DNA from: Tagaea sp.
GTDB taxonomy: Bacteria > Pseudomonadota > Alphaproteobacteria > CACIAM-22H2
Assembly (NCBI GenBank): GCA_965279525.1
Contig: CBDIIB010000003.1
Span: 128,001 to 192,000, forward strand
Reading direction: 5' to 3'
DNA length: 64,000 nt
Of the stretch, positions 1 through 28,123 are shown in pieces. The notes below the pieces were generated by a model. That model had not been told where the DNA came from. It worked only from the letters and a program-made list of their open reading frames with translations, and ran no database searches. The translations under genes and the position numbers were made by a program. Within the stretch, counting starts at the first letter, position 1. Each line of letters begins with the position of its first letter.

Positions 1-279
1 TGCCTTCTGGAGCGGATGGAGTTCTGTACCTGTCGCCAGGCCCTCGACGGTAACGATTTTCGACCCTTGAGCCTGGACTGCGAACATCAGGCAGGAGCGT
101 ACAGGTTGCCCATCCATGCTGACCGTACATGTCCCACAAACGCCGTGCTCGCATCCAAGATGGGTGCCGGTCAGCCCGCACTCCTCGCGGAGCGCGTCGG
201 CGAGGGTTCGCCTGGGCTCCACCTTGATCCGGTACTCGCGGGCATTGACCGAAAGCGTCACATCAATCGCGTCTGTCAT
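1..279 (-). CDS. (2Fe-2S)-binding small subunit of a xanthine dehydrogenase/CODH-family molybdenum hydroxylase (CoxS-like), 3' end outside window
   Basis: Not in ORF track; manual translation from ATG at 279 gives MTDAIDVTLSVN...LTGTHLGCEHGVCGTCTV...VRSCLMFA...LHPLQKA; ATGA overlap with the FAD subunit stop. Confidence 0.93.
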   Translation of the reverse strand, partial: MTDAIDVTLSVNAREYRIKVEPRRTLADALREECGLTGTHLGCEHGVCGTCTVSMDGQPVRSCLMFAVQAQGSKIVTVEGLATGTELHPLQKA

Positions 280-1136
280 GTGATGCTGCCTTCCAAAGCG
301 CGCTGGACCACGGCTTGCGCCAGCTCACGGCGGTACGGGCCGGGAAATTCTTCGTCATCGAGCGGCTCGACCGCATTCTGGGTTGCGACAGCGGTCTGTC
401 GGAACAGATCGGCTCCGACTTTACCGGACCCGAGTACGGCTTCCGCTGCGGCGATACGTCTTGGAAAAGCTTCGACACCGCCGACGCCGATCCGCGGATC
501 CAGGGCCTGTCCGCTCGAAAGTCGGTAAAGCACGAGGGATGCTGCCATTGCAAAGTCACCCTTGCGACGGCTTACTTCGTAAAAACCGAATCTCGTATCA
601 TCGGTAAGAAGGGGTATGCGAACCTTCGCGATGATTTCATCTTCGGCCAGATTGTTGGCCATGATGCCCGTATAGAAGTCCTGCGCCGGAATGATCCGCT
701 CGCCGCGTACGCTCACAAGCACGACTTCTGCGCCGACAGTCGTCGAAACAAGACACCATTCAGAGGCGGGATCCGAGTTGGCAATACTGCCGCAAAACGT
801 GCCCCGCGAGCGAATGGGCGCATGGGCGATGTTGCGTACAACTGCCGAGAGAAGGCGGCCAAGTTGGCCGCTGCCCGGAAGCGGCTGCTCCAGCGAATTG
901 TGACGTACCGTCGCGCCGATCGACAGTGCGCCATTCTCGATCGAGATTTTCCCGAACTCCGGAATCCTGTTGATATCGATAACGTGCCGGGGGCGCGCCA
1001 AACGAAACGCCATCATCGGAACGAGCGTCTGGCCGCCCGCCATTATCCGCCCGTCGTCGGGCGCCAATGTCGAAATCAGGTTGACCGCTTCGCTCAGGCT
1101 CGTCGGTGCGTGATATGTGAATGGCGCTGGTTTCAT
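276..1136 (-). CDS. FAD-binding medium subunit of molybdenum hydroxylase (CoxM-like)
   Basis: MKPAPFTYHAP start, AGGQTL FAD motif, IRSRGTFCGSIANSDP. Confidence 0.93.
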   Translation of the reverse strand: MKPAPFTYHAPTSLSEAVNLISTLAPDDGRIMAGGQTLVPMMAFRLARPRHVIDINRIPEFGKISIENGALSIGATVRHNSLEQPLPGSGQLGRLLSAVVRNIAHAPIRSRGTFCGSIANSDPASEWCLVSTTVGAEVVLVSVRGERIIPAQDFYTGIMANNLAEDEIIAKVRIPLLTDDTRFGFYEVSRRKGDFAMAASLVLYRLSSGQALDPRIGVGGVEAFPRRIAAAEAVLGSGKVGADLFRQTAVATQNAVEPLDDEEFPGPYRRELAQAVVQRALEGSIT

Positions 1137-1191
1137 GTCTAGCCGACATTCCCTAAACCAGTACTCTGCGACGAAATCTCGCTCGGAGCAA

Positions 1192-2193
1192 TCATGCGAG
1201 GACTCTCGTCAGCGACAAGTCGTCCCGAATGCACGCCGTGTAGTGATCCTCTCCAACTTTCCGCAACGTCGGAACGATCTGCGCGCACTCGGGGCGCACA
1301 TAGCTGCACCGTGTGCGGAACACGCAGCCACTCGGCGGATTTGCCGCACTCGGAATCTCGCCTGTCGGGAAAATCTTGCGTTGATAGCCGGGTTCAGGCT
1401 GCGGAACGGCCGAGATCAGCATTTCCGTATAGGGATGCTTGTAATTGCTGCAAACTTCCGTGCTCGGACCAATTTCCATGACTCGCCCGAGATAAAGGAC
1501 AGCAATCCGGTCGGAGATGTACTCCATTGCCGCAAGATCGTGGGAAATGAAGAGCATCGACAGTCCCAGCCGCCCCTTCAGTTCGATCAGCAATGCAATG
1601 ATCTGGGCTTGGATCGACACGTCGAGCGCGGATACGGGCTCGTCGGCAACGATGAATTCAGGATTCACGGCAAGCGCACGCGCGATGACAATCCGCTGCC
1701 GCTGGCCGCCAGACATCTGGCCGGGCCGACGCTTCAAGTAGTCACTCGAAAGCGAGACGCTGTCGAGCAGCTCAACTGCCCTGTCTCGCCGTTCTACCGC
1801 GCTTCGGCCGATACCCTGGACAATCAGTGGCTCGCTCAGAACCTCTTCGATCGTCATCTGCGGATTGAGAGCCGCCAACGGATCCTGGAAAATGATCTGC
1901 ATACGCCTTCTGAACTGGCGCAGATCGGACGATTTGAGTGCAGTCACGTCGACGCCGTCGAACACGATGCGGCCGGCGCTTGGCTCGACGAGGCGAAGAA
2001 CGGAGCGGCCGATCGTGGTCTTGCCGGATCCTGACTCACCCGCCAGCCCCAGAACTTCATGCGATCTAACCGTGAATGACACGTCATCGACGGCCTTGAC
2101 CTGGCCGATCTTGCGCCCGAAGACGCCACGGGTGATGTCAAACCACTTCCGGAGACCTTCGACACGCAGGAGAGGCGGCGTCTCTGAAGTCAT
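1192..2193 (-). CDS. Oligopeptide/dipeptide-type ABC transporter ATP-binding protein (DppF/OppF-like)
   Basis: Walker A GESGSGKT, MSGGQRQR, C-terminal PPSGCVFRTRC; start moved to ATG 2193 (overlaps upstream stop). Confidence 0.93.
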   Translation of the reverse strand: MTSETPPLLRVEGLRKWFDITRGVFGRKIGQVKAVDDVSFTVRSHEVLGLAGESGSGKTTIGRSVLRLVEPSAGRIVFDGVDVTALKSSDLRQFRRRMQIIFQDPLAALNPQMTIEEVLSEPLIVQGIGRSAVERRDRAVELLDSVSLSSDYLKRRPGQMSGGQRQRIVIARALAVNPEFIVADEPVSALDVSIQAQIIALLIELKGRLGLSMLFISHDLAAMEYISDRIAVLYLGRVMEIGPSTEVCSNYKHPYTEMLISAVPQPEPGYQRKIFPTGEIPSAANPPSGCVFRTRCSYVRPECAQIVPTLRKVGEDHYTACIRDDLSLTRVLA

Positions 2194-3200
2194 TGAGCTG
2201 CCCTCGCGATGTCTTGCCAACGTACACAACGCACTTGATGCCCCTGCTCGATAGCTTCCAGCTCCGGAACCGAGGTGTCGCACACACCACCGACAAACTG
2301 GCTGCACCGGGGATGGAACTTGCAGCCACTTGGCAGTGCGAGCGGGCTTGGAAGGCTCCCGGGAATCGGTTCGATCGGTGTCCCAAGCGACTTCTTGCGG
2401 CCGAGACGCGGAAGAGATTTCAGCAAGCCAGACGTGTAGGGCATCCGCGGGCGCGTGAACAATTCGTTGACCGTACCCGACTCGACGACTTCGCCTGCGT
2501 ACATGACGATGGCGCGGTCTGCGATCTCCGCGACGAGGCCGAGATTGTGGGTAATGAACAGGATTGCCATGCCAGTCTGCTTCTGGATGCGCTTCAGATG
2601 TTCGACAATCTGTGCCTGGATGGTGACATCCAGCGCGGTTGTCGGTTCATCGGCTATCAGCAGTGACGGTCGACTCGCCAGAGCCATGGCAATCATGACG
2701 CGCTGACGCATCCCGCCAGAAAGCCGATGCTGGAAGGTGCTCATGCACTTTTCCGGGTCCGGCATTCCGACGGCTTCGAGCGCCTTTATCGAGGCCGCAT
2801 GCGCTTCCCGATAGGAAAGACGTTGGTGCACGCGAGCGGCTTCGCACATCTGCGTGCCGATCGTGAATACCGGATCGAGCGAAGACATAGGTTCCTGGAA
2901 GATCATCGCGACTTCGTTGCCGCGGACCTTGCGTATCTCCGCCGCGTTCAGTGCCAGCAAGTCGGCCTGCGTGCCGTCCTTCCGCTTCAAGTGAATGCTT
3001 CCGGAGATCGTCGCAGTTGGAATGAGCTGCATTGTCGCCAGCCCGGTTGTGGACTTGCCCGAACCCGACTCACCGACCAAAGCGACGATCTCGCCCGGAT
3101 TTATCTGAAAACTCACATTCCGGACGGCATGAATCGCACCTTGTGGCGATTGGAACGACACCGAAATGTCGTCGACTTCCAGTAGAGCATTCCGGCCCAT
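2190..3200 (-). CDS. Oligopeptide/dipeptide-type ABC transporter ATP-binding protein (DppD/OppD-like)
   Basis: [35 protein letters not shown]. Confidence 0.94.
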
Positions 3201-3203
3201 CCA

Positions 3204-3986
3204 CTATTCCTCTCGATAGCCCAGCATGTAGAAGCCGAAAATAGTGAACGCGACGGCGAATCCGGGCGCCAAGCTCATAAATGGATTGATGGTCAGGTAG
3301 TCGACGCCGCTACGCACCATTCCACCCCAGTCGGCGGTCGGCGGCGGCACGCCCAGGCCAAGAAAGCTGAGGCTTGACGACGTGAAGATCGAGAACGCCA
3401 CGACGGTCGCAAGCTGTACCGCCACCAGGCGGAAGATGTTTGGCCAGATATGGCGAACGATGATCCATGCCGTTCCGCCGCCCACAGCGCGCGCCGCCTC
3501 GACGTATACCGATTCACGAATTGCGAATGTCTGACCTCGGGCCAGGCGCGCCACGCCGGGCCAGGCGACAAAGCCGAGCACCAAGATGATGTTGAGCATC
3601 GTTGCTCCCGTCATCGCGATGATGATGAGAGCAAGCACGAGACCGGGAAGTGCGATGAACAGATTGATGAACTGCATCGCGACCAGATCGATGGTTCGCC
3701 CGAGATATCCGGCAGCCAAGCCGATGGGAACGCCGATCAGTCCCGCGACGATTGCCGATCCGACGCCGATCAGAAGGGATACTCTCGCCCCGTAGAGAAC
3801 TCGGCTGAAGATGTCCCGCCCAAGCTGATCGGTTCCGAGCCAGTGCTGGGTCGAAGGAGTCTCGAAAAGGCGAACGCTTGTCGAGGACGGATCGATCGGC
3901 GCGATCCATGGCGCGGCGATCGCCATTACAGCCACAAATGAAACGATCGACAGTCCAATCAGCGCGTTGCGGTTCTGCATTGTCAA
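3204..3986 (-). CDS. Peptide-type ABC transporter permease (DppC-like)
   Basis: HWLGTDQLGRD, EAA motif YVEAARAVG, hydrophobic helices. Confidence 0.93.
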   Translation of the reverse strand: MTMQNRNALIGLSIVSFVAVMAIAAPWIAPIDPSSTSVRLFETPSTQHWLGTDQLGRDIFSRVLYGARVSLLIGVGSAIVAGLIGVPIGLAAGYLGRTIDLVAMQFINLFIALPGLVLALIIIAMTGATMLNIILVLGFVAWPGVARLARGQTFAIRESVYVEAARAVGGGTAWIIVRHIWPNIFRLVAVQLATVVAFSIFTSSSLSFLGLGVPPPTADWGGMVRSGVDYLTINPFMSLAPGFAVAFTIFGFYMLGYREE

Positions 3987-4921
3987 TCGAGCCTGATCTG
4001 GGGATTCGCGGCGACATAGAGCAAGTCAGCCAAAAGGTTCAGTATGACGACGCTTATGATCGTGATCATGCCGATCGCGAGAAAGACGGGGAAATCGCGC
4101 GACAGCAGAGCACTTGTAAAGAGAGTGCCGACGCCGGGGATCGAGAACACCGTCTCGGCAACGAGCGCGCCTGCGGCGAGCTGGCCAAGACTGCTTCCGA
4201 CTTGCGTGATTACCGGCAGGATGGAATTCGGCAGAATGTGTTTGAAAGAAACGGCACTCTCGGAAAGCCCCTTTGCACGCGCCACCTGGATGTAGAGGCG
4301 GCGGGACGTTGCCCGATATTCGGCGCGGTAAACGAGTCCAAACGAAGCGAAGTAGTAAGCGGCAACAGTCAACACCGGCAGGATGAGATGGAGCAGATGT
4401 TCGCCGATGCCCGCTGACCAGGGCGCCCACCCAGACGTGGGAAGAATGCCCAGTACGACCGAGAAGATGTAAGTAAGAGTGATTCCGAGCATGAAGTTCG
4501 GAACCGTGATTCCGATTAGACTAAGTATGTTCACGAGAGGTCGGACGACCGTGCTCCCGACCGTGATGCTGCTGAAGACAACAGAGGTTGTCACTGCAAC
4601 CACCATGCCCAGTAAAGCAAGCTCGATGCTGGGCAGGAATCGCGGCAAGAGTGCGTCGACGACGCGCTGGTTCGTCGCATAGGACCGGCCGAAGTCGCCG
4701 TGCAGAGCTTTCCACATCCAGTCGAAGTACTGCACGTATAGCGGGCGATCGAAGCCGTACTGGCGCTCGAGCTCTAGTATCCGCTCGGGCGTAGCATCGA
4801 GACCCAGCATGAGTGTCGCCGGGCTTCCCAAGGCCCCCAGAATCGCAAAAAACAGCAACATGGAAATCAGAATGATGTTTGGGATGCCAAGCAATAGGCG
4901 CCGGACAATCAAGCTAAGCAT
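3983..4921 (-). CDS. Peptide-type ABC transporter permease (DppB-like)
   Basis: GFDRPLYVQY, GDFGRSY, ARAKGL, ETVFSIPGVG, NPQIR. Confidence 0.92.
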   Translation of the reverse strand: MLSLIVRRLLLGIPNIILISMLLFFAILGALGSPATLMLGLDATPERILELERQYGFDRPLYVQYFDWMWKALHGDFGRSYATNQRVVDALLPRFLPSIELALLGMVVAVTTSVVFSSITVGSTVVRPLVNILSLIGITVPNFMLGITLTYIFSVVLGILPTSGWAPWSAGIGEHLLHLILPVLTVAAYYFASFGLVYRAEYRATSRRLYIQVARAKGLSESAVSFKHILPNSILPVITQVGSSLGQLAAGALVAETVFSIPGVGTLFTSALLSRDFPVFLAIGMITIISVVILNLLADLLYVAANPQIRLD

Positions 4922-5173
4922 TGACCAAATTCCGAAATGGCTGGGGTTGTGAGGGACGGAAGCGTGCTCGTGAGCCTTGCCTTGCCGATGCGCCTATCTC
5001 GGTAAATTCCAGTTGTGCGGAGCAACCCGGGTGCGGCGCCATACGCCGCCTCGAAAAGGCTCACCGCCGAGTGTGTCCCAAATTGTTTCAGAGGTCAGCC
5101 CTCGGAGAGTTCAGAACTTCATCTAATGTCCAATTTTCAATATCAGCGGGCAATAAATGTGTCAATTGCCAAC

Positions 5174-5190
5174 TGTACCGAAATTGGAAT
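5174..5190. promoter_or_regulatory. Candidate GntR operator, module A
   Basis: TGTACCGAAATTGGAAT in the divergent permease/coxG gap; similar sites at 9672, 14682 and 27041. Confidence 0.45.
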
Positions 5191-5276
5191 TGGTGCTAAT
5201 TTTGAGCATCCGCTGTGGTCGATCAAGTACTCCGTCGTGCCCTCGCGTCGGGAGCCAAAGGAGCAGAGTAAAAGCT

Positions 5277-5870
5277 ATGGAATTCGAAAACTCGTTCGAG
5301 GTACCGCTCCCGCCGGATCGGGCATGGGCTGTGTTGCTCGACATTCCCAACATGGTGAAGTGCATGCCTGGCGCGGAGCTGGTCGAGATTGTCGATGAAA
5401 CGACATTCAAAGGAAAAGTTACCGTTCGCCTTGGCCCCGTCACGATGAACTTCGCAGGTACGGTCAAGTTCACAGAGATGGATCCGACAAGCCATCGTGC
5501 ATTGGCGAATGCGCGCGGTAATGATGCAAAGGGACGTGGGGCTGCGAACGCGAATGTCCGCTTTGGGCTGGACCCATCACCGGCTGGCTCACTCGTGACC
5601 ATCCACACGACATTGTCGCTTACGGGAGCAGTCGCCCAGTATGGTCGGGCATCCGGTGTGATCAAGGAACTTGCGAACCAGATCACGTCCGAGTTCGCTC
5701 GCCGCCTCCGGGCTCAGATCGATGCGGAAAGTGTCGCGGTCACCGGTACTCCAGTGGAGTCCGCATCAGCGCTTCCGCCGCCCCCAGTCGAAAGTCTGTC
5801 GGCTGGAAAGCTCTTGTGGAGTGTGATTCGGGCTTATATTTCAAGACTCTTCGGCCGCGGTCAGGGATAG
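5277..5870 (+). CDS. coxG: CoxG/SRPBCC family molybdenum hydroxylase accessory protein
   Basis: MEFENSFEV...CMPGAEL...VRLGPV...GAVAQYGR with hydrophobic C-terminal anchor; start taken at ATG 5277. Confidence 0.85.
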   Translation: MEFENSFEVPLPPDRAWAVLLDIPNMVKCMPGAELVEIVDETTFKGKVTVRLGPVTMNFAGTVKFTEMDPTSHRALANARGNDAKGRGAANANVRFGLDPSPAGSLVTIHTTLSLTGAVAQYGRASGVIKELANQITSEFARRLRAQIDAESVAVTGTPVESASALPPPPVESLSAGKLLWSVIRAYISRLFGRGQG

Positions 5871-5955
5871 CCGTCTTCAATTGCGACTTCCTTCTGGTAT
5901 CTTGCGTCGATGAGCGTACGGCAAATGCGCCTCCTGGACGTAAGGACCGGATGGA

Positions 5956-6747
5956 ATGGGAAGGAATGGTAATAGATCATTGCGAATTGGGCGAACCCCT
6001 CCCAGTCTGCGGGAGCTTGCGACAGTCAAGATCCGAAACGCGATCCTGAGCATCCACTACAAGCCGCAGCAGAAGCTGACGGAGCGCATGCTCTGTGCCG
6101 AGACGGGTGTCAGCCGGACTTCCATCCGGGAGGCGCTTCGGCAGCTCGAGGCGGAAGGGTTGGTCGAGCGAGTGCCGCGGCGCGGACTTATGGTCGCCGC
6201 AGTGTCCCCGTCGGAGGCCAGGCAGATCTATGAAGTCCGGCTCGCCCTAGAGACGACTTTGTCACGACTGTTTGTCGAGCGCGCAGCCATCAAGGACATC
6301 GAGGCTCTGCGTTCGGCGTGCGATGCCATCGAACGCGACATGAGCCGAAAGCCGGTGACGAATTACGTCCAGTCGATAGATCGCTTCTTCGACATCCTGA
6401 TGCGAGGCGCCGGCAACGAGGTTGCCCGCTCCATACTTCGCAATCTTCGGGCTCGGATAAGCTATTTGCGGGCGCTTACTGCGGAAGCGTCCGGGCCGGA
6501 GCGGGGCAAGGAAACGCTCGAGATCATGCGCGGCGTTGTAGATGCTGCCGTCCGTCGCGATGCGGACGACATCGTGCAGCGTTGCAAACACATGGTCGAA
6601 CGCTCGGCGCGCTATGCGATTGCGCTGCTTACCAGGCTTGAGGCGGAGTCGGACGCAGCCAAGAAAAGCCAGCCAGTTCGGCGGAAGCGCGCATTGCCGC
6701 TCAGGCGGCGAAAGTTTTCGGCAACCAGAGAGCTCGGAAGCGGTTAG
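5956..6747 (+). CDS. GntR family transcriptional regulator (FCD domain)
   Basis: HTH TERMLCAETGVSRTSIREALRQLEAEGLV. Confidence 0.92.
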   Translation: MGRNGNRSLRIGRTPPSLRELATVKIRNAILSIHYKPQQKLTERMLCAETGVSRTSIREALRQLEAEGLVERVPRRGLMVAAVSPSEARQIYEVRLALETTLSRLFVERAAIKDIEALRSACDAIERDMSRKPVTNYVQSIDRFFDILMRGAGNEVARSILRNLRARISYLRALTAEASGPERGKETLEIMRGVVDAAVRRDADDIVQRCKHMVERSARYAIALLTRLEAESDAAKKSQPVRRKRALPLRRRKFSATRELGSG

Positions 6748-6759
6748 CGAAACGCAATG

Positions 6760-7761
6760 TTATGGTTCGTCCTTGTCGTGAACCACGACGACTCGACCGT
6801 ACGCCTTACGATCCCGAACCGCCCGCAGAGCATCCTGGAATTCCTCCAGTGGATACTTTGTCATCGGCAAGGACGCAATTTTTCCCGTCTGGAACCAATC
6901 GAATAGTTCCCGATAGCATGTCTCGACTTGCTCGGGCCGCTTCTTTCGGTAGTCACTGACTTGCAGTCCCGTCACTTCGATATTCTTCAATAGAACGTAG
7001 TTCACCTTGAGCGTCGGAATTCGCCCAGCCGCGAATCCAATGACGACCAGGCGACCGCACCAAGCAAGTGCCCGGATCGCCGCGTCAAAGATATCCCCGC
7101 CGAGGGGGTCGAGAACAATGTCTGCGCCTCGCCCGCCTGTAAGCTCGTGAACCTGTGCTCGCAGGCTATCGTGCAGGTCCGGTCGCGCCAGATCGACAAT
7201 TGAGTCGGCGCCGGCCGCACGCACAAGGGGGATTTTGTCGGGGTTCGAGATGCCGGCCATCACGAAGGCACCCATGGCCTTCGCGATCTGGATCGCACCA
7301 ATTCCCACGGCACCCGAGGCGCCAAGAACAAGAACAGTGTCTCCAGCCTTGTATCTGGCGCGATCCTTCAGTGCGAACCAAGCGGTGTCGTTGGCGACTG
7401 CCATCGATGACGCTTCGGCGAAATTCATCGACGGTGGCAGAACGTAGCATTGAGATTCCGAAACGGTGACGAGCTCGGCGTATCCACCGATTTCTGCCAT
7501 CGCGAGGACCCTGTCGCCGATCTTCAGCTTCTTCACGTCCGGACCAAGTCCGACTACGACGCCTGCCGGACCTTTGCCGGGAACGAATGGCGGCTTCGGA
7601 AGAAACTGATACTTTCCGGTAATCACCAACTGATCGACATAGTTGACGGTGGTCGCGTGGGTGCGTACCAGCACTTCGCCCGAGGCTGGAACCGGGTCGG
7701 GCATCGTTCCCAAGCGCAAGTTCTCGATTGGCCCGAAAGCGTCGACGATTATGGCGCGCAT
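6760..7761 (-). CDS. NADPH:quinone oxidoreductase (zeta-crystallin/MDR family)
   Basis: GKYQFLPKPPFVPG, LGASGAVG, GRLVVIGFAAG. Confidence 0.9.
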   Translation of the reverse strand: MRAIIVDAFGPIENLRLGTMPDPVPASGEVLVRTHATTVNYVDQLVITGKYQFLPKPPFVPGKGPAGVVVGLGPDVKKLKIGDRVLAMAEIGGYAELVTVSESQCYVLPPSMNFAEASSMAVANDTAWFALKDRARYKAGDTVLVLGASGAVGIGAIQIAKAMGAFVMAGISNPDKIPLVRAAGADSIVDLARPDLHDSLRAQVHELTGGRGADIVLDPLGGDIFDAAIRALAWCGRLVVIGFAAGRIPTLKVNYVLLKNIEVTGLQVSDYRKKRPEQVETCYRELFDWFQTGKIASLPMTKYPLEEFQDALRAVRDRKAYGRVVVVHDKDEP

Positions 7762-7799
7762 GTTTCCTTCACTCGCACGTCTAAGAATTTCCGATCGGA

Positions 7800-9464: not shown

Positions 9465-9671
9465 TTCGCTTTTAATTCTCATCACGGGAGCGTAATTTTC
9501 GCTCGCGCCCATCCCAAAATCAAGAATAATCCAGAAAATGGGAATTCGGTAATGATTTGTCTTTCAACCACCTTGGAATCGGTAGCGGGACCTTCGGAGT
9601 AGCCGCGCCTTTTCAAAGCCGATGAAGGGCTAAGTCATGTGCAGCGGAGATAGATTGGGTTCGTACGGCGG

Positions 9672-18138: not shown

Positions 18139-19155
18139 ATGAAAAAAATACTTGCAGGCTTCGCTGCGGCGGCCGTCATCTTCAGTGGCTATCCCGCGAA
18201 GGCAGATTTCCAGGACAACCAGCCGATTTCGATTACGACCTCGGGTGCGACGGCAACGGGGTTTGGTAGGGCGGTCGTGGAGGCCCTGAATGCCATCGTC
18301 CGGGACGTCTACCCCGGTTCCACGATGACATTCAGGCCGAACACGGGGGCTGGCGGCCTTGTCGATCTGATGAACAATGATGCCCAACTGTCGCTGGGCG
18401 TGACGAACGTGGAGATCCCGATTGCCCTCGAGGGCCAGCCGCCTTTCGAGCAGCCGATGAAGGGGAAGCTCTCCTTCGTCTTCAACGGGTTGCCAGGCAC
18501 GAAGTTCTTCTTCATCGCCGAGAAGGCCTGGGCCGAGAAGGCCGGCGTCGTGACGCTTGAGGACTATGCCAAGAAGAAACCTCGGGGCACGATGTCCGTA
18601 AGCGCCCGTGGAACGCTTTATCTGAATATCATCGCGGACTCGCTCCTGAAGCAGGGTGGCGCATCGATCGAATCCATCGAGAAGCAGTGGTCGGGATCGC
18701 GCGTCGCGTATCTCCCCAGTGCGCGCGGCGTCGACGAACTCAAGGATGGCAAGATCGACTGGCAGATCGGCGCAGCATTCCAGCCGTTCCAGGCGATCAA
18801 TGAAGTCGCGCGCAGCCGGCCGCTCGTTTGGCTGAAGGTACCGGATAGCTATCTAAGCGCGGTCGCGAAAGAATACGATCTCGAGATCGTTACCTTTCCG
18901 AAGGGCTTCTACAGCTTCCTCGATGAGGACGTTAAGACGCTTCGCATCGATCTTGCGATGCTCGCGGCGACATCCGTATCCGAAGAGGCGGTCTACAAGT
19001 ACATGAAGGCCGTCGGCAGCCGGCTCGACCGATTCCGGTCGATCCATCCTTCGTATAGCGAGGTAACGCTCGAGGAACTTGCCCGCAAGCCGCGGAGCGT
19101 CCCCTATCATCCGGGCGCGGAGCGGTACTTCCGTGAAGCTGGGGTTCTGAAGTGA
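18139..19155 (+). CDS. TAXI family TRAP transporter solute-binding protein
   Basis: Signal peptide MKKILAG..., C-terminal PYHPGAERYFRE; followed by fused permease. Confidence 0.88.
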   Translation: MKKILAGFAAAAVIFSGYPAKADFQDNQPISITTSGATATGFGRAVVEALNAIVRDVYPGSTMTFRPNTGAGGLVDLMNNDAQLSLGVTNVEIPIALEGQPPFEQPMKGKLSFVFNGLPGTKFFFIAEKAWAEKAGVVTLEDYAKKKPRGTMSVSARGTLYLNIIADSLLKQGGASIESIEKQWSGSRVAYLPSARGVDELKDGKIDWQIGAAFQPFQAINEVARSRPLVWLKVPDSYLSAVAKEYDLEIVTFPKGFYSFLDEDVKTLRIDLAMLAATSVSEEAVYKYMKAVGSRLDRFRSIHPSYSEVTLEELARKPRSVPYHPGAERYFREAGVLK

Positions 19156-19156
19156 G

Positions 19157-19201
19157 ATGAAGACGATGGCCCCGCGACTTCGTCGTGGGGCCATTCTTCA
19201 T
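19157..19201 (+). terminator. Intercistronic stem-loop after TAXI binding-protein gene
   Basis: ATGGCCCCGCGAC-TTC-GTCGTGGGGCCAT core, extended by ATGAAGA/TCTTCAT. Confidence 0.6.
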
Positions 19202-19246
19202 TAGTCGGCAATAAGTAAACCGCTTTCGACGTTTCGGTGGACATCA

Positions 19247-21205
19247 ATGACCAGTGCGACTTCATTCCGTCAATTGGTGTTCCGCTATATCGACGAAGGC
19301 CGGTCGGTGAAGTTGGATGGCCCCGCGCGTATACTGGTCGCGATAATTTCCGTCATGATGGCGGTGTATATTTTCCGATACGCCTTCTTCTCGATTTCCA
19401 GCCTGCATCTCCACGACGCAATTTTCCTGACCGGCATGCTTCCGATCGTCTTTCTGACGACATCGGCACATACCGGCCGGACCGACCGAAACTGGATCGA
19501 CTGGGTGTGGGCGATCGGTGCAATTCTTGCGAGTAGCTACTTCATCTTTAATTGGCGGTTCTACGAAACGATGATCGAGGGCGTCACGCGAATTTCCAAG
19601 CTGGAAGTCGCGATGAGCGTGGTCATGACGGTCTTCGTCATCGAAGCTTGCCGTCGAATTGTAGGCTGGGGCTTGACCGGAACATGCGTACTTCTGCTCG
19701 CATATGTGGCGTACGGCGAGCATCTTGGCGGCGCTCTGGGGCACACCCCGATAAGTCTGGAGTACTACGCGCGTCGGATAACCGTGTCGGACGATGCGCT
19801 GTTTGGGGTGACCGTCGAGGTCGCTGCGACATATGGGTTCCTGTTCGTCTTCTTTGGCAGCATCTACCATCGTGCGGGTGGAGGTCAGTTCTTCTTTGAC
19901 TTGGCCAGCGCCCTCGTGGGGCGGACGAAAGGTGGCGCAACAAAGGCATGCGTCGTTTCAAGCGGGATCTACGGATCAGTCTCGGGCAGTCCGACCGCTG
20001 ACGTCATGACAACCGGGCCGATCACGATTCCCATCATGCGTCGTAGCGGCGCGACGGCAACGCGTGCCGCGGCTACAGAAGCCGCAGCGTCCTGCGGCGG
20101 TGCCATCTTGCCCCCCGTGATGGGTTCGGTGGCATTCCTCATGGTCGAGTACACGGGGATCCCCTACCGCTCGATTGCATTGGCCGCAACTGGCATCGCT
20201 ATTCTTTATTATCTCGGTGTCCTGGCGATCACGCACCATGAGTCAAGCTATCTGCGCGAAGGACAGCTTCAGGAAGGCGACGTGACGCCACTTGCGAAAG
20301 TCCTGAGGCGCGACTTCCGTCTGATTTTCCCCGTCTTCGCGCTGCTGTACCTGATCGAAGCAGGATACTCGCCGACGATTGTCGCGGCCGGCGCCTCGGT
20401 TATCGGAATTTTGTCCAGCTATCTGACGCCCGATCGAAAGCTCTGGGTGACGCCTGGCGCGCTACTCGAATGCTGCATCGAGACTGCTGTTCGCATTAGC
20501 GGACTGACCGCTGCTTGTGCTGCTGCCGGCATGGCAATCGGGTATCTCGATATGAGCGGCTTGGTTGGAAAGTTTAGCTTTATCCTGTCAGTCGTTTCCG
20601 GCGGAAATTTCGCACTGGTAATCATCGCCGCTGCGGTGCTCTTGATCATTCTTGGCCTGGGGCTGCCAACGGCTGCCGTATACATCATGGGTGTGGCATT
20701 GGTGGCGCCGGTGCTGATTGCCGATTACAAGCTTTCGGTAATGACAGCACATATGTTCATGCTGGTTTTCGCATGCATGTCTGCGATTACTCCACCGATG
20801 GCCGTAGCTGCAATGGCTAGCGCCGCACTGGCTGGCGCAAATGCCGATCGTGTTGGATATTACGGCTGTCGACTTGCTTATGCCGGCTTCCTGCTGCCCT
20901 TTCTTTTCGTCGTACGACCTGAACTTCTTCTCGAAGGCGCGACCAGCGATATCGTAGCGACACTTGTCGCCGCATTCATAAGCGTCTTGGTCATCAGCTA
21001 TGCTGTTGCCGGTACTGTTCGGCAGTCACGGATTCACTGGACGGTTAGGGTTCTGCTTGCCGTTGCCGGGTTTATAATTCTTGTCCCCGGGACGTCTGCT
21101 CTGGTCGTGAGTATCGTATTGCCAACGGCGATGATGTTCGCATTGATCAGGTGGGCATCTCAAGCCGACGCACGTGCGATCCGAGACGGCGGCACGGTCC
21201 AATGA
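19247..21205 (+). CDS. TRAP transporter fused 4TM/12TM permease
   Basis: 652 aa polytopic; GSVSGSPTADV, GGAILPPVMG, GLGLPT, SAITPP. Confidence 0.92.
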   Translation: MTSATSFRQLVFRYIDEGRSVKLDGPARILVAIISVMMAVYIFRYAFFSISSLHLHDAIFLTGMLPIVFLTTSAHTGRTDRNWIDWVWAIGAILASSYFIFNWRFYETMIEGVTRISKLEVAMSVVMTVFVIEACRRIVGWGLTGTCVLLLAYVAYGEHLGGALGHTPISLEYYARRITVSDDALFGVTVEVAATYGFLFVFFGSIYHRAGGGQFFFDLASALVGRTKGGATKACVVSSGIYGSVSGSPTADVMTTGPITIPIMRRSGATATRAAATEAAASCGGAILPPVMGSVAFLMVEYTGIPYRSIALAATGIAILYYLGVLAITHHESSYLREGQLQEGDVTPLAKVLRRDFRLIFPVFALLYLIEAGYSPTIVAAGASVIGILSSYLTPDRKLWVTPGALLECCIETAVRISGLTAACAAAGMAIGYLDMSGLVGKFSFILSVVSGGNFALVIIAAAVLLIILGLGLPTAAVYIMGVALVAPVLIADYKLSVMTAHMFMLVFACMSAITPPMAVAAMASAALAGANADRVGYYGCRLAYAGFLLPFLFVVRPELLLEGATSDIVATLVAAFISVLVISYAVAGTVRQSRIHWTVRVLLAVAGFIILVPGTSALVVSIVLPTAMMFALIRWASQADARAIRDGGTVQ

Positions 21206-21314
21206 AGTGCCTCGCCGGATCGAATTACAGCATTTGGACGAAAATCCATCTGGGCGAGTAACAGCGGAATTGGTTCAGACCTCGATCTCAGAATGAACAA
21301 TCAGGAAGGTGAAT

Positions 21315-22565
21315 ATGTCGAGCGAAATTCAGATTGACGCGAATGCCGAGGCACCGAGTTCGCGCCGTTGGGTAGACCAGCGTTGGGTCCTGGACAACGT
21401 GATCAGCTCTGTCGGGATCGACTGGGACCAGCCGCGCTCGCTGTACTTCAATGGCGCATGCGGCATCGAATCAAATCCAGACTTCGCTGCGATCCGTCAG
21501 GGCGTCAAGAAATTTGCGGACATAGGTCCTGCATTTGAAGCAGCGGCGCGTCGCCGTCAGGCCAAGGCGATTGCCGCTGAAGACGCTGGAGAGCTTGTCA
21601 CCGCTCGCGACAACTACTTCATGGCGGCCATTCAGTGGGGGGCTGCGCAATGGCCGCACAATGCGGTCAACGCAACAAACGTGAACTGCAACAAGAACAA
21701 GCGCGAGTGCTATACGTCTTATGCCCGACTGGCAGCCCACAAGGTCGAAGAAGTCTGGATCCCGTTCGGCCAAAGCAAAATTCCGGCCTGGTTCCACCTT
21801 CCTCCCGGCTATACGGGCGGCCGGCTTCCGCTAGTGGTTTCGTTCCCCGGACTGGATACGTTCAAGGAAATCTTCGTGTCCTTGTCGAACGACAGATGGC
21901 TGTCGCGTGGCATGGCAGTGCTTGTGGTCGATGGACCCGGACAATCCGAGTCTCGAATACTGGGGCATAAATTTTCGCTGGCCGGATTCATCGAATTGGC
22001 TCCGAAGCTGCTCGACTGGGCGATCGCGAGACCGGAGATCGACAAGGACAAGATTGGAATCTTCGGCAACAGCCTTGGATCCCTTATTTGCACTGCCATT
22101 ACTGCCAACGAGCCACGCCTTAAGGCCTGTGCCGTATCGTCGATCTGCTTCGAGCCGGGGCAGAAGACAATGGTCGAGGCAGCTTCACCGACCTACAAGC
22201 GTCGTCTCATGTACATTTCCGGGTATACAGACGAGGCAAAGTTCGACGAATTCCGGCGCAGCCTAACCTGGGAAGGGTATGCCGAGAAAATCCGTGTGCC
22301 GTATATTGCCCTGGCAGGTGAGCACGAGGAGCTTTGCCCTCTGGAAAATGCGGACAGGATGCTGGCAAGCATGAACTGCCCTCGGCAGTTCGTGGTCTAC
22401 CAGGAGTCCCGTCATGCGGTGGGCTATGTTCCGTCCGCAAACCTCGGACCGTATCCGACCACGCTCGTCGCCGACTGGATGGCGGCTAGACTTGCCGGTA
22501 AGCCGATCACGAGCGAGCGCTGGTATGTGCACAAGGACGGAAAAGTCTCGAAAACCCCTATCTAG
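21315..22565 (+). CDS. Alpha/beta hydrolase, 2,6-dihydroxy-pseudo-oxynicotine hydrolase/FrsA-like
   Basis: PGLDTFKE, DGPGQSE, nucleophile elbow GNSLG, helical N-terminal domain. Confidence 0.8.
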   Translation: MSSEIQIDANAEAPSSRRWVDQRWVLDNVISSVGIDWDQPRSLYFNGACGIESNPDFAAIRQGVKKFADIGPAFEAAARRRQAKAIAAEDAGELVTARDNYFMAAIQWGAAQWPHNAVNATNVNCNKNKRECYTSYARLAAHKVEEVWIPFGQSKIPAWFHLPPGYTGGRLPLVVSFPGLDTFKEIFVSLSNDRWLSRGMAVLVVDGPGQSESRILGHKFSLAGFIELAPKLLDWAIARPEIDKDKIGIFGNSLGSLICTAITANEPRLKACAVSSICFEPGQKTMVEAASPTYKRRLMYISGYTDEAKFDEFRRSLTWEGYAEKIRVPYIALAGEHEELCPLENADRMLASMNCPRQFVVYQESRHAVGYVPSANLGPYPTTLVADWMAARLAGKPITSERWYVHKDGKVSKTPI

Positions 22566-22576
22566 CCAGGTCGCCG

Positions 22577-23563
22577 ATGCCGAAGAAAATCCATGTCTCT
22601 TTGAGTTGCGGCGACTATGAGATCACGCGGCCACTCATCGATGGGCTGGTCAGTCCCGAAGGCGTGGATGTCACCGTGCTCTCGGCGTCGACTTCTCGGG
22701 ACCGGCAATGGCGGCTCGGGCGGAATGCCGAGTGCGACGTCGGGGAGCTGAACGCTTGCGCATATTTCATGGCGCGCGAGAGAGGGCACCCCTATATCGC
22801 GCTGCCCGTCTTTCCGCATCGTCGCTTCCGGCATGGGTTCATCTTCGTGAATCCGGACAAGGGCATAACGAAGCCGTCGGAGCTTGCTGGACGAAAAGTC
22901 GGGGTGGAAAGCGGCTTTCAGCCGGCCGCGGCGGTCTGGGTCCGGGGGATACTCGGCGACGAGTACGGCGTTCCACACCAGGAGATCACGTGGGTCACTG
23001 ATCGTGACGAGGATATTCCGTTCACGCCGCAGGCAGGACTTCGTATGGAGCGCGCCGAGCCTGGGTCTTTGGACAGGATGCTCGTAGCTGGCGAGATCGA
23101 TGCACTCATTGCGCCTGGCTACCCGCAATCGTTTCTCGCAGGAAACAAGAATATTCGCCGCCTGATTCCCGACTTCAAGTCAGCGGAAGTGGACTACTAC
23201 AAGCGCCGTGAGATTTTCCCGATCATGCATCTCGTCCTGATCCGGGAAGAACTGGTCAAGAAGTATCCTTGGATCGCGCCGAACATCGCATTTGCGTTCA
23301 ACGAGGCAAAGCGCATCGGCTACGAGCGCTTCCGGAATCCGCGGGTAGCGCCCCTGGCTTGGGGAACCAGTGCGTGGGAAGAGCAAGTCGCCCTGATGGG
23401 CCCGGATCCCTGGGAGTACGGTTTGACGCCACGCAATCGGGAGAACTTGAAGACACTCATCCGATATTGCTGGGAGCAGGGCCTAATCCGAGAGCAGCCG
23501 TCAGTGGATGACGTCATTCTGAATGTCAGCAGCGAAGTCCTACGGGGAACCTCTGGCTTCTAG
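22577..23563 (+). CDS. 4,5-dihydroxyphthalate decarboxylase (PhtD)-like protein, copy 1
   Basis: CGDYEITRPLIDG, LPVFPHRRFRHG, IFPIMH, DPWEYG; no signal peptide. Confidence 0.82.
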   Translation: MPKKIHVSLSCGDYEITRPLIDGLVSPEGVDVTVLSASTSRDRQWRLGRNAECDVGELNACAYFMARERGHPYIALPVFPHRRFRHGFIFVNPDKGITKPSELAGRKVGVESGFQPAAAVWVRGILGDEYGVPHQEITWVTDRDEDIPFTPQAGLRMERAEPGSLDRMLVAGEIDALIAPGYPQSFLAGNKNIRRLIPDFKSAEVDYYKRREIFPIMHLVLIREELVKKYPWIAPNIAFAFNEAKRIGYERFRNPRVAPLAWGTSAWEEQVALMGPDPWEYGLTPRNRENLKTLIRYCWEQGLIREQPSVDDVILNVSSEVLRGTSGF

Positions 23564-25988: not shown

Positions 25989-26978
25989 CTATAGCTTGGG
26001 CATCGAGAAAGTTGACGGATGAAACAGATCCTCTGCCGTCAGGCGGCTGGTCGTAAGCCCCTGCTCTTGGAGATAGCGGGCCAGAGCATCGATTTCCTTT
26101 TGATTCTCGGTGACACCGTACCGCCAGTAATCCTGTCCCAAGATCTCGCGGGTCCGCTCAAGCTCGTCCACCGGCCACGGCAAAGTCGTATAGAGGTGGC
26201 CGAGAGTCTCAAGCCTCGTGTAGCAAAGCTCTTTGGCTTTGGCGAAGGCGCGAAACACGTTGAAGGGAAGCCATGGATGCTCTTCGACAAGTCGCTTGCG
26301 TATCCCGATGAGGTGCATGATCGGGAAAATGGCGGTCTTCATAAAGTAATTTGTCTCGACGATCCTATAGTCCGAAAACAGCCGTCCGACCGCAGGGTTG
26401 GTCTTCAGGCAAGAGGGCGGCATGGCTGATACAAGAGCGTCGATGTCGCCCCGATCGAGCTGAGCCGTCAAGGTGTCGTCGCCGGGAATAGGCGCTACTT
26501 CAACTTGATCGGGCAGATTCAGAGAGACACTGGGTGTACGTCCCGCCTGCTCAAGGCCCCCAGTACGCCAGCGCAAATCGCTTGGGCGGACACGGTATTC
26601 GTCCTGGAGAATGCCGCGCACCCAGACAGCGGCCGTGATCTGGTATTCCGGCACCCCGACAATTCGACCTTTGAGATCTTCGGGACGCTCTATTCCCCGA
26701 TCGCGCCGAACGTATATCGAGGAATGGCGGAAAAGTCTGGAGAGGAAAACCGGGACTGCTACATAGCCATTCTGGCCACGATCGACCTGTGTCATGTGGC
26801 TGGCCATGGAAAGCTCGGTGATATCGAACGACTGATGTCGCAGCGCTCGCGGAAACGCCTCTTCCGGAGGCATTGCAAGTGGAATGATGGTACAGCCATC
26901 GATAGGCGCGCGGCCGTCAAACACGGCGCGTGTTCGGTCATAGTCGCCGCAGGCGAGACTGAGGGTCAGGGTGTGCAT
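25989..26978 (-). CDS. 4,5-dihydroxyphthalate decarboxylase (PhtD)-like protein, copy 2
   Basis: ACGDYDRTR, PVFLSRLFRHS, GVPEYQITA, IFPIMH, DYWRYG. Confidence 0.85.
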   Translation of the reverse strand: MHTLTLSLACGDYDRTRAVFDGRAPIDGCTIIPLAMPPEEAFPRALRHQSFDITELSMASHMTQVDRGQNGYVAVPVFLSRLFRHSSIYVRRDRGIERPEDLKGRIVGVPEYQITAAVWVRGILQDEYRVRPSDLRWRTGGLEQAGRTPSVSLNLPDQVEVAPIPGDDTLTAQLDRGDIDALVSAMPPSCLKTNPAVGRLFSDYRIVETNYFMKTAIFPIMHLIGIRKRLVEEHPWLPFNVFRAFAKAKELCYTRLETLGHLYTTLPWPVDELERTREILGQDYWRYGVTENQKEIDALARYLQEQGLTTSRLTAEDLFHPSTFSMPKL

Positions 26979-27040
26979 CGTGCCTATGTCCGAAGCCTGA
27001 TTTGAGCATCAGGATGATCGCCTAGTATTGAAATATAAAG

Positions 27041-27057
27041 TGTTCCAAAATTGGACA
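27041..27057. promoter_or_regulatory. Candidate GntR operator, module A
   Basis: TGTTCCAAAATTGGACA near-palindrome in a divergent gap; extra half-site TTGGTACA ending at 27077. Confidence 0.5.
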
Positions 27058-27142
27058 CTAGAGTAATTTTTGGTACAATCAGTCGAAATCGCCGCCAGTT
27101 GGCGGAGTCCATCCATCAGGAAAATCGACGAAGGGACGACAA

Positions 27143-28123
27143 ATGACCGCAAAAGGCACGATCGCAATCGTTGGCGCCGGGCTGATGGGGACGGCAATCG
27201 CAGCATTGTGTGCCGCCCGAGGCTATAGCGTTGGCCTTTATGATCAGAGCCAGAAGAGCCGTGACGGGTTTGCGGACCGTGCGCGACCCATCCTCGGTCA
27301 TCTCGCGGAATCAAGGAGTGCTCAGGACGAAATCCTTGGCCGAATCAAGTTGCACGATTCACTCGAGAATTGCGTCAGGGGAGCGACGCTTGTCCATGAG
27401 ATCATACATGAAGATCTTGAGGCGAAGCGTGCACTCTTCCATCAGCTTGATGCGATTTGCGCCGAAGATGTAATGCTCGCAACCAACACCTCATCGTTTC
27501 TGCTGAGTGAGATTTGCGCGACTGTTCCCGGACGACGGAGAGTGATCGGCATTCACTATGTGGCGCCGGCGCATTTGATCCAGGCTGTGGAAATCATTAC
27601 GGCTGACTTTACGGCGCCAGAGTTGGTCGAGCGCGCGCTAAAGTTCCTTGAATCCATTGATCACGTTGGAATCGTTTGCAGGGAGTGTCCGGGATTCATA
27701 ATCAATAGAATCCAGTATGCCTTGAAAGCAGAAGTGCAGAAAATCTTGGAAGAGGGTGTGTCTTCGGCACAGGACATCGATACAGCTGTGCGGCTGAGCA
27801 TTGGGCCAAGACTAGCACTTTGGGGCCCTATGATGCAGGAGGATCTGTCGACCAGCAAAAAGACCGTGCTGGCTGTGATGGAATACATACACAATGCGAC
27901 CGGCAGTTCCCACTTCGCACCGTCGCCAGTCCTGAAGCAATTGGCTGAGAGCGGTCAGATAGGTGCATCGGCAGGAGCAGGTTGGTATCGCTGGGATGGA
28001 AGTAATGAGCAGCGTGTACGAGAGCGCGATCGGCAACTTAGCGCACTGCTTGATTGGCTGAAAAAGAATGATCGAGTGAATGCTCTCGGTGCAATCGGCG
28101 AGAACAAGTTGGTCAAGTCGTAG
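27143..28123 (+). CDS. 3-hydroxyacyl-CoA dehydrogenase family protein
   Basis: GAGLMG, EDLEAK, ATNTSS, catalytic His/Glu in IHYVAP...VEI, PGFIINR. Confidence 0.9.
   Translation: MTAKGTIAIVGAGLMGTAIAALCAARGYSVGLYDQSQKSRDGFADRARPILGHLAESRSAQDEILGRIKLHDSLENCVRGATLVHEIIHEDLEAKRALFHQLDAICAEDVMLATNTSSFLLSEICATVPGRRRVIGIHYVAPAHLIQAVEIITADFTAPELVERALKFLESIDHVGIVCRECPGFIINRIQYALKAEVQKILEEGVSSAQDIDTAVRLSIGPRLALWGPMMQEDLSTSKKTVLAVMEYIHNATGSSHFAPSPVLKQLAESGQIGASAGAGWYRWDGSNEQRVRERDRQLSALLDWLKKNDRVNALGAIGENKLVKS

Follow-up and report, generated by a model that had tools for sequence, protein, structure and literature searches.

A 64,000-nt stretch of a Tagaea sp. genome (contig CBDIIB010000003.1 of assembly GCA_965279525.1, positions 128,001 to 192,000; hereafter the window) encodes two molybdopterin-binding large subunits of the xanthine dehydrogenase family, here termed L1 and L2, and, at its left end, a single pair of genes for an FAD-binding medium subunit (M) and a 2Fe-2S small subunit (S). 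This arrangement raises the question of which electron-transfer subunits L1 and L2 work with, and in what pathway. An earlier note on this DNA had proposed that the M-S pair lacks a catalytic subunit of its own and that L1 and L2 alternate on it. The explanation we favor is that the first 28 kb of the window form the right-hand part of a larger catabolic island in a Rhodospirillales-like alphaproteobacterium. This island would encode three paralogous catalytic subunits—L1, L2 and, just left of the window after M-S, an L3 resembling 6-hydroxypseudooxynicotine dehydrogenase (Kdh)—and would degrade an N-heteroaromatic acid using M and S proteins made from an ABC-transporter operon. Taken jointly, we give these propositions slightly better than even prospects.

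Gene identities were derived from a listing of open reading frames (ORFs) combined with Pfam and NCBIfam profile searches, for which about 60 window ORFs were scanned; all genes named by the earlier note were recovered at its coordinates. L1 (10948–13347, plus strand) and L2 (23572–25929, minus strand) are 49% identical. Both possess the three-domain architecture (a/b hammerhead, MoCoBD_1, MoCoBD_2) of a xanthine dehydrogenase-family large subunit, with Pfam scores for Ald_Xan_dh_C, MoCoBD_1 and MoCoBD_2 of 88, 247 and 248 bits in L1 and of 94, 248 and 249 bits in L2. The third methionine of the L1 ORF lies at 11008, and since homology to PDB entries begins at residues 25–31, this position is a plausible start.

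Inspection of the active sites revealed a loop reading TRGAGRPQ in L1 (residues 382–389, window 12091–12114) and VRGAGQPQ in L2 (residues 362–369, window 24846–24823). The L1 loop falls into the alignment column occupied by AYxCSFR in the CO dehydrogenase large subunit CoxL (8uem, 1ffu, 1zxi), AYRAPGRYE in Kdh and AYRGVGF in quinoline oxidoreductase (Qor); the L2 loop and glutamate columns were placed via alignment to L1. The catalytic glutamate equivalent to Kdh E748 is kept in both proteins, with KGAAEGG of L1 aligned to KGLGEIG of Kdh, KGMGES of Qor and KGVGES of CoxL, and KGVGEAG of L2 in the same column. Likewise, both retain the active-site glutamine within the triplet STQ.

Using PDB bit scores as a proxy for relatedness to characterized enzymes, Kdh (7dqx) was the best match of both proteins (490 bits for L1, 475 bits for L2), followed closely by Qor (1t3q; 474 and 454 bits) and Mycobacterium smegmatis CoxL (8uem; 463 and 456 bits). 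With scores within 27 bits, the three enzymes are nearly equidistant from L1 and from L2, and the alpha subunit of 4-hydroxybenzoyl-CoA reductase scores far lower (243 and 248 bits). Neither protein qualifies as a form I CoxL, as the aligned position reads ATRGAGRPQ or PVRGAGQPQ and contains no Cu-binding cysteine, nor as a Kdh, as the YRAPGRYE loop is missing and neither protein matches Kdh by a margin of more than 27 bits over Qor or CoxL. The best NCBIfam models all fall short of their curated cut-offs, namely CODH_aero_grp5 (NF040766; 716.1 bits for L1 and 709.6 for L2, cut-off 950), the glyceraldehyde dehydrogenase alpha model (598 and 606 bits, cut-off 790) and TIGR02416 (509.5 and 471.7 bits, cut-off 991). 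Homologs of L2 at 78–94% identity occur in public protein sets, with more than 120 clusters listed at an identity of at least 60%, and those listed all bear generic or ‘carbon-monoxide dehydrogenase large subunit’ names. A plasmid protein search with L1 and L2 returned no match above 47% identity and generic names only.

These names, together with the models CODH_aero_grp5 and glyceraldehyde dehydrogenase alpha, could be taken to mean that L1 and L2 are form-II-type, CO dehydrogenase-like enzymes acting on a small non-heterocyclic substrate such as CO or an aldehyde, with the neighboring genes being irrelevant. Their RGAG loop also resembles AYRGAGR, which we take to be the form II motif. However, both model scores lie under the cut-offs, the loops contain no cysteine, the two genes sit in operons with decarboxylase and oxygenase genes, and the window ORFs scanned include no cox accessory gene besides coxG, rendering this the least probable of the explanations considered here. 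As judged from their sequences, L1 and L2 are intact, conserved, uncharacterized hydroxylase subunits distinct from CoxL, in agreement with the earlier note. They belong to a large clade without a characterized member, and the ‘CO dehydrogenase’ label that genome annotation routinely attaches to its genes is contradicted by both the loop and the curated cut-offs.

Pfam and tblastn searches revealed no Fe-S or FAD partner gene within the L1 or L2 operons, as the note had observed, and tblastn with M, S and L queries detected no further M, S or L gene in the whole 64 kb. Since L1 and L2 themselves lack Fe-S and FAD domains, they would have to recruit M and S proteins in trans. The quinoline oxidoreductase (QorMSL) and form I CO dehydrogenase (CoxMSL/CutMSL) systems belong to the same family, with the same domains and comparable scores, and the window likewise contains a CoxG-type gene; in most of the related loci examined, however, M, S and L genes adjoin one another, unlike L1 and L2.

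The M-S operon at the window edge and its relatives

The M gene (276–1136, minus strand; FAD_binding_5 and CO_deh_flav_C domains) precedes the S gene (1–279, minus strand; Fer2 domain) with a 4-nt overlap, and the two lie 55 nt downstream of four ABC-transporter genes on the same strand. The window start cuts S after 93 of ~162 residues, and the remaining fragment is without the C-terminal domain that contacts L. The operon thus continues out of view.

To follow it, we used M in a scan of species-representative genomes, in which 338 stretches matched and 246 were confirmed, and kept the best 80 loci (numbered with the prefix L and three digits). The best of these, L001, is a Telmatospirillum metagenome-assembled genome (MAG) whose M is 76% identical to that of the window; over its 93 residues, the window S fragment shows 85% identity to the start of the L001 protein, which has 162 residues. 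L001 is collinear with window positions 1–10912 over eleven genes at 75–94% protein identity, the comparison extending as far as its 10-kb flank, with the L1 and L2 positions lying beyond. On the other side, the L001 operon runs M (10001–10861), S (10858–11346), L3 (11343–13697), a second medium subunit M’ (13694–14569) and a second small subunit S’ (14566–15054), with 4-bp overlaps throughout. Downstream of S’ follow an amidase, a 2-oxoglutarate oxygenase and a FAD_binding_2 protein. One catalytic gene is thereby flanked by two electron-transfer pairs, and M’ falls into another clade than M. L3 of L001 carries a YRSPGRYE loop of the Kdh type, YRxPxR(Y/F)E, lacks the glutamine as Kdh does, and scores 579 bits to Kdh versus 413 bits to Qor; it is therefore Kdh-like by the same measures by which L1 and L2 are not.

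Gene orders across the 80 loci were next determined by chaining same-strand tblastn hits that lay no more than 1 kb apart. An L gene was chained to the anchor M in 72 of them. MSL was the most frequent order (44 loci), followed by LMS (12), MS (6), MLS (4), MLSL (4) and LLMS (3); the remainder were ML and M (2 each), MSLMS, MLLL and MSLL (1 each), with the MLLL and MSLL loci reflecting fragmented L genes. Where no L was chained (8 loci), the downstream sequence is shorter than 2 kb in 5 cases; only L054, L057 and L064 lack an adjacent L despite ample flanking sequence. S directly follows M in 52 loci, and in 46 of these L comes next. Given the truncated S, the collinearity with L001 and these counts, an L gene encoding a Kdh-like L3 probably starts at the left edge of the window and is itself followed by a second pair, M’-S’. 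The apparent ratio of two L genes to one M-S pair would then largely be an effect of the window edge. Hence, the contention that M-S at 1–1136 has no L of its own is not supported: a dedicated L gene left of the window, the first part of what the note had itself named as speaking against its model, is probably present.

To place the subunits phylogenetically, an L tree of 106 rows (FastTree), an M tree (quick IQ-TREE run) and an S tree (FastTree; the window fragment and 30 of the 79 S rows) were built. L1 and L2 fall into one 16-row clade (support 100), within which L2 groups with 12 relatives (support 100; L009, L011–L016, L018–L020, L029 and L032), whereas L3 of L001 belongs to a separate 9-row clade. 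All 12 L2-type relatives are encoded directly upstream of an M-S pair. The M proteins beside L2-type genes form an 11-row clade (support 98) within a 21-row clade (support 99) that also holds the window M, and the S tree agrees, with a 15-row clade (support 96) that includes the window S.

Three of these relatives are part of LLMS operons, found in a Noviherbaspirillum MAG (L011) and in the cultured species Salipiger marinus (L029) and S. thiooxidans (L032). All three share the order L3-type (Kdh-like) gene, L2-type gene, class II-aldolase-family gene, M and S, the genes in L029 being joined by 4-bp overlaps (operon coordinates L029:4610-11397 and L011:445-7362). The class II-aldolase-family protein encoded between the L2-like gene and M in L029 matches 2z7b with 185 bits; PMC11841055 identifies 2z7b as a Mn-dependent 3-hydroxy-2-methylpyridine-4,5-dicarboxylate decarboxylase. 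TAXI-TRAP transporter genes like those of the window and an XRE-type regulator gene precede the Salipiger LLMS operon. Genes for a polysaccharide-deacetylase-like and an isochorismatase-domain protein follow it. In four further loci—three SAR116 genomes and one Streptosporangiaceae MAG (L021, L034, L042, L050)—the order is MLSL with one pair; here, the second L belongs to the wider L3 clade and the first to another clade. No second M-S pair was found beside any LLMS or MLSL operon in the flanking sequence, which spans at most ~10 kb to either side and up to 20 kb in all.

Judging from gene order, two distinct catalytic subunits with one electron-transfer pair are a recurrent operon type, in which a Kdh-like with an L2-like subunit is the recurring combination; such operons parallel nicotine degradation with its two steps by Ndh and Kdh. 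The idea of successive hydroxylations on a shared M-S pair thereby gains comparative support from the Salipiger and Noviherbaspirillum operons, with the qualification that L2 is paired there with L3 and not with L1. For alternation of L1 and L2 on an M-S pair devoid of its own catalytic subunit, one may cite the content of the 64 kb (one M, one partial S, two L genes) and the seven loci with two L genes and one pair. Yet, the M-S genes run off the window edge, with L3 and M’-S’ directly downstream in L001; L comes next in 46 of 52 M-S loci; the LLMS operons combine an L3-type with an L2-type subunit and never two members of the L1/L2 clade; and the MLSL operons, too, draw their L subunits from the wider L3 clade and a different one. 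We consider this model highly improbable.

Neighboring enzymes, operator motif and substrate class

The neighbors of L1 and L2 are as the earlier note described them, comprising two PhtD-like decarboxylases, a CoA ligase, a TauD-type oxygenase and a hydrolase with a likeness to DHPON hydrolase that holds but is weak. PhtD-like decarboxylase 1 (unk329; 25989–26978, minus strand) is encoded by the first gene of the L2 operon, separated from L2 by 59 nt. Convergent on L2 is a plus-strand operon (17863–23563) for a TAXI-TRAP binding protein, a fused TRAP permease (19247–21205), the DHPON-hydrolase-like alpha/beta hydrolase (21309–22565) and PhtD-like decarboxylase 2 (unk328; 22577–23563). Both decarboxylases are similar over their full length to solved PhtD, the 4,5-dihydroxyphthalate decarboxylase 9jp7, with 333 bits for unk329 (E 1.6e-98, residues 1–325) and 160 bits for unk328 (residues 4–313). 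A TauD-family Fe(II)/2-oxoglutarate oxygenase (9857–10912, plus strand; PF02668; best PDB match FrbJ, 138 bits) is encoded directly upstream of L1. Divergent from this TauD-L1 operon, a minus-strand operon (6760–9512) encodes a CoA ligase (7800–9512) and a quinone-oxidoreductase/enoyl-reductase-like protein (6760–7761).

Comparison with other PhtD-like genes sets this neighborhood apart from classical phthalate catabolism. Classical pht operons comprise a Rieske dioxygenase, a PDR/VanB reductase and a Gfo/Idh/MocA dehydrogenase. A Rieske phthalate dioxygenase, its reductase and a dihydrodiol dehydrogenase are present beside some plasmid PhtD homologs (plasmid PhtD-type genes being 46–49% identical to unk329), but none was found among the window ORFs scanned. 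A Roseomonas plasmid harbors an S-L-PhtD-like operon adjoining an alpha/beta hydrolase gene, and PhtD-like genes occur together with L1-like and M-S-L3-like genes in L005 and L006. On plasmid 2 of Variovorax sp. WDL1 (L083; NZ_LR594690.1 556465-571436), a PhtD-like gene is accompanied by Rieske oxygenase, reductase and Gfo/Idh/MocA dehydrogenase genes and adjoins genes annotated as 2,5-dihydroxypyridine dioxygenase, isochorismatase and alpha/beta hydrolase; this cluster may encode a dioxygenase-based route for a pyridine dicarboxylate.

Our best guess for the substrate is a pyridine-type (N-heteroaromatic) carboxylic or dicarboxylic acid. This assignment by analogy draws on the nearest characterized relatives, which hydroxylate N-heterocycles, on the 2z7b-like gene in the Salipiger operon, on the Roseomonas S-L-PhtD-like operon and on the Variovorax PhtD-like gene beside a 2,5-dihydroxypyridine dioxygenase gene. 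It further draws on a precedent from Alcaligenes sp. UK21, whose 6-hydroxyquinolinate decarboxylase is described in a review (PMC6644310) as similar to phthalate decarboxylases. This enzyme, likened here by description and not by sequence, would illustrate the use of a PhtD-type fold after hydroxylation of a pyridine dicarboxylate.

The genes for the CoA ligase, the reductase and a thioesterase suggest, again by analogy, a thioester route. HmfABC, the 2-furoyl-CoA dehydrogenase, and 4-hydroxybenzoyl-CoA reductase are xanthine dehydrogenase-family enzymes that act on CoA thioesters supplied by an adjacent CoA ligase. In the window, the CoA-ligase operon is divergent from TauD-L1. CoA ligase homologs lie beside L2-like-M-S genes in 7 of the 12 L2-like loci, and reductase homologs in 6. 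The likeness to Hmf concerns the gene set.

If the island operates as a unit, the ring would be hydroxylated successively by an L2/L1-type enzyme and by the Kdh-like L3 enzyme, whereupon decarboxylation would fall to the PhtD-like enzymes and cleavage of the product to the hydrolases. A CoA-ligase/reductase/thioesterase branch would handle a thioester intermediate or a side chain.

Aligning the window with L001 revealed conserved blocks in the divergent promoter regions, with TCCAAnnTnnGTAC in both. Allowing one mismatch at most, this sequence has 5 matches in the window versus 1.42 expected (3 of 100 shuffles reach 5), one of them being a near-palindrome in the PhtD1-L2 promoter region. Relaxed to TCCAANNTNNGNAC, the pattern occurs exactly 3 times in 64 kb versus 0.33 expected (0 of 100 shuffles reach 3), statistics that overstate significance as these very sites had served to define it. 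Site 1 (TCCAATTTCGGTAC; 5175–5188, minus strand) lies between the divergent ABC-M-S and CoxG-GntR genes, in the permB/CoxG region, within a 30-nt block identical in L001. Site 2 (TCCAAACTTTGTAC; 9672–9685, minus strand), also conserved in L001, lies in the CoA-ligase/TauD region between the divergent ligase-reductase and TauD-L1 operons, and site 3 (TCCAATTTTGGAAC; 27042–27055, minus strand) lies in the divergent region between PhtD1-L2 and a 3-hydroxyacyl-CoA-dehydrogenase-family gene. The motif, TCCAAnnTnnGnAC, is near-palindromic, with GTTCCAAnnTTGGAAC as its best form.

The 80 loci (1.39 Mb) contain 5 exact matches, a number not above chance (~7, the window shuffle mean scaled up), so that only their positions are informative: all are situated just upstream of homologous operons. 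Two are the orthologous sites in L001. The others lie 29 nt before M in L005 (L005:9959-9972), where L006 has a copy with one mismatch in the same position; ahead of a CoA-ligase homolog in L006 (L006:20507-20520); and ahead of the TAXI-TRAP-L-L-M-S operon in L029 (L029:1408-1421), to which a copy with one mismatch corresponds in L032. Independence from the pattern definition can be claimed solely for window site 3 and for the sites in L005, L006 and L029. A GntR/FCD regulator gene lies beside site 1 in both the window and L001. On these grounds, the motif is a candidate operator of one regulon, and the island operons are probably under common regulation.

A second palindrome, AACGG..CCGTT, was considered and dropped, as its two window matches (AACGGCGTGGCCGTT at 9758–9772 and AACGGGCCGTT at 14604–14614, in the divergent CoA-ligase/TauD and epimerase/solute-binding-protein intergenic regions, respectively) are unequally spaced and two or more matches arise in 11 of 100 shuffles.

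The motif also bears on whether the region could be a chance assembly of unrelated catabolic modules, in which L1 and L2 serve different substrates without a common pathway. The presence of two different transport systems, one regulator and many generic oxidoreductases, the different accessory enzymes of the L1 and L2 operons, and the mosaic of further catabolic clusters in the rest of the window would all fit such a scenario. It is countered by the motif common to three promoter regions and by the recurrence of subsets of the same families in distant taxa, including TAXI-TRAP genes with L3, L2, M and S in Salipiger, ligase and reductase genes beside L2-M-S, and PhtD-like genes with L1-like and M-S-L3-like genes. 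We deem it unlikely. The neighborhood does look like one catabolic unit for an uncharacterized acid, as the earlier note had it, with comparative pointers to the substrate.

Which electron-transfer pair would serve L1 and L2

Besides the limits of the motif statistics given above, a number of observations weigh against the explanation we favor. The presence of L3 and M’-S’ in the Tagaea genome is extrapolated from a single relative, L001, with an M of 76% identity. Probable off-frame ORF artefacts account for 3 long-branch rows of the M tree and for 6 rows of the L tree, and the M tree stems from a quick rather than a careful IQ-TREE search. With respect to regulation, no regulator is common to the window (GntR) and Salipiger (XRE-type); a search of the window for a homolog of the Salipiger XRE-type protein found none (best E value 0.14). 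The match of the alpha/beta hydrolase to DHPON hydrolase (2jbw, its best PDB match) is weak at 52 bits (E 4e-13, residues 131–401), with FrsA next at 35 bits. As the earlier note had remarked, no ring-cleavage dioxygenase family is represented among the window ORFs scanned. Among five sampled plasmid PhtD-like genes, one lies beside a molybdenum enzyme, three lie in Rieske-dioxygenase clusters and one in neither setting.

Finally, a 7-row group (support 99) unites M’ of L001 with the M proteins of L046, L060, L061, L063, L067 and L068, whose adjoining L genes are the sister groups of the L1/L2 clade. Four of the six loci (L046, L060, L063, L067) encode a CoxG that is 39–45% identical to the window CoxG, versus 25–29% in most other loci; when L079 is included among the M’-type operons accompanied by CoxG, the range is 38–45%. 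From this grouping and the CoxG likeness, L1 and/or L2 may use M’-S’ rather than M-S. Three L genes would face two pairs nearby, a shortfall that calls for some sharing unless the genome encodes additional pairs elsewhere.

The grouping of M’ and the CoxG likeness also speak for a scenario without any sharing, in which L3 works with M-S, one of L1 and L2 with M’-S’ and the other with a pair encoded elsewhere, the genes merely being dispersed. Genomes of this kind do hold many M, S and L sets, with a second set within 20 kb in several loci. In addition, kdhL on plasmid pAO1 lies apart from kdhMS and nevertheless encodes the subunit of a dedicated enzyme, according to PMC10494377 and PMC8305194. 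Such a scenario would leave unaccounted for that 12 of 12 L2-type relatives lie beside M-S pairs of the window’s clade, and not of the M’ clade, and that the single-pair LLMS and MLSL operons have no second pair nearby. We regard it as possible, on balance doubtful.

The pAO1 system of Paenarthrobacter nicotinovorans, whose KdhLMS tops the PDB matches of L1, L2 and L3 alike, is also the closest precedent for the gene arrangement. Kdh is an L-M-S heterotrimer that performs the second hydroxylation of the pyridine ring. In PMC10494377, the order is given as kdhL-pnh-kdhMS, with kdhL split from kdhMS by the DHPON hydrolase gene and a polyketide-cyclase/SRPBCC gene nearby, and PMC8305194 describes the separate cloning of the two Kdh parts to reconstitute the enzyme. 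Shared with the window are an L gene not contiguous with M-S, a hydrolase gene next to L (in the window a weak candidate for the DHPON type), and an SRPBCC gene. Together with the 6-hydroxyquinolinate decarboxylase (PMC6644310), this renders the assertion that no characterized pathway resembles the gene set too strong.

The differences are nonetheless considerable. L1 and L2 are distant from KdhL, carrying RGAGxPQ instead of YRAPGRYE, and the Kdh-type loop would be found in L3 only. The window L genes lie 10–23 kb from M-S in separate operons, and the hydrolase match is the weak one noted above. The L genes come with PhtD-like decarboxylases and a TauD-type oxygenase, and no nicotine-pathway oxidases were found in the window. 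Moreover, unlike in pAO1, three L genes may draw on two M-S pairs.

Within the explanation we favor, sharing could go further still, such that one M-S pair serves two or three catalytic subunits (Kdh-like L3 and the L2/L1 type) as a modular molybdenum hydroxylase. This proposal is tentative, with prospects clearly below even. As enzymes of this kind are (LMS)2 dimers, mixed (L.L’)(MS)2 particles might arise, and successive ring hydroxylations could take place on one complex; the operon would have been broken up in the Tagaea genome, yet held in one regulon by the shared operator. A keyword search of the open-access literature returned neither an M-S pair shared among several L subunits nor a direct match to a pathway combining a molybdenum hydroxylase with a PhtD-like enzyme, which is not proof of their absence in print. 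If one M-S pair does serve several L subunits, the counting and interpretation of orphan coxL-like genes in genomes and metagenomes would change, and a handle for engineering hydroxylases through L-subunit swaps would be gained. The question lends itself to direct testing, given the conserved operator motif and the gene content of the cultured relatives Salipiger marinus and S. thiooxidans.

Other genes of the window

A near-identity DNA search of window positions 1–12000 against plasmids returned only two short ABC-ATPase matches. The ABC importer upstream of M-S (1192–4921, minus strand) is of the Dpp/Opp type by Pfam and NCBIfam and consists of two permeases (3983–4921 and 3204–3986) and two ATPases (2190–3200 and 1192–2307). 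The last ORF has probably been called too long, as it overlaps the upstream ATPase gene by 118 nt (2190–2307). Divergent from the ABC-M-S run are the genes for the CoxG/SRPBCC protein (5277–5870, plus strand; PF06240, 48 bits) and the GntR/FCD transcription regulator (5956–6747, plus strand; Pfam), the latter with an 80% identical ortholog in the same position in L001. The CoxG ORF opens at 5157, and its Pfam match starts at residue 46 of ORF 5157–5870, in agreement with the start at 5277 chosen in the earlier note.

Between L1 and the TAXI-TRAP operon, Pfam and NCBIfam identified an SDR/epimerase (13366–14349, minus strand), a family-5 solute-binding protein (14645–16252, plus strand), the 4HBT thioesterase (16353–16859, plus strand) and a zinc alcohol dehydrogenase-like protein (16928–17992, minus strand). 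The thioesterase matches the C-terminal part of a carnitine 3-dehydrogenase model with 105 bits. The TAXI ORF, as called from 17863, overlaps the start of the zinc alcohol dehydrogenase-like gene by 130 nt; its start more likely lies at 18124–18139, ahead of the signal-peptide-like MKKILAGFAAAAV. To the right, the 3-hydroxyacyl-CoA-dehydrogenase-family gene (27143–28123, plus strand; Pfam) is divergent from the L2 operon. Its product scores 163 bits to the NCBIfam model for FHMPC dehydrogenase of pyridoxine degradation, well under the cut-off of 500.

Beyond the 28-kb region, positions 35694–48675 hold a separate CoA-dependent cluster resembling branched C5-dicarboxylate (itaconate/mesaconate-type) catabolism, with Amidohydro_2, HpcH/citryl-CoA-lyase-like, MaoC hydratase, acyl-CoA dehydrogenase, BKACE and MmgE/PrpD proteins and two family III CoA transferases. 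Two alpha/beta-hydrolase-like paralogs (28770–29861 and 51536–52561), ~22 kb apart, are 64% identical over 332 residues, and a weak homolog of them is encoded near the L1-like gene in L006. At ~54 kb, the G+C content climbs from about 0.56–0.59 to 0.61–0.67, coinciding with a PdxA-family gene and a DctPQM TRAP transporter (window 54000–64000); this step may mark the boundary of the catabolic island.

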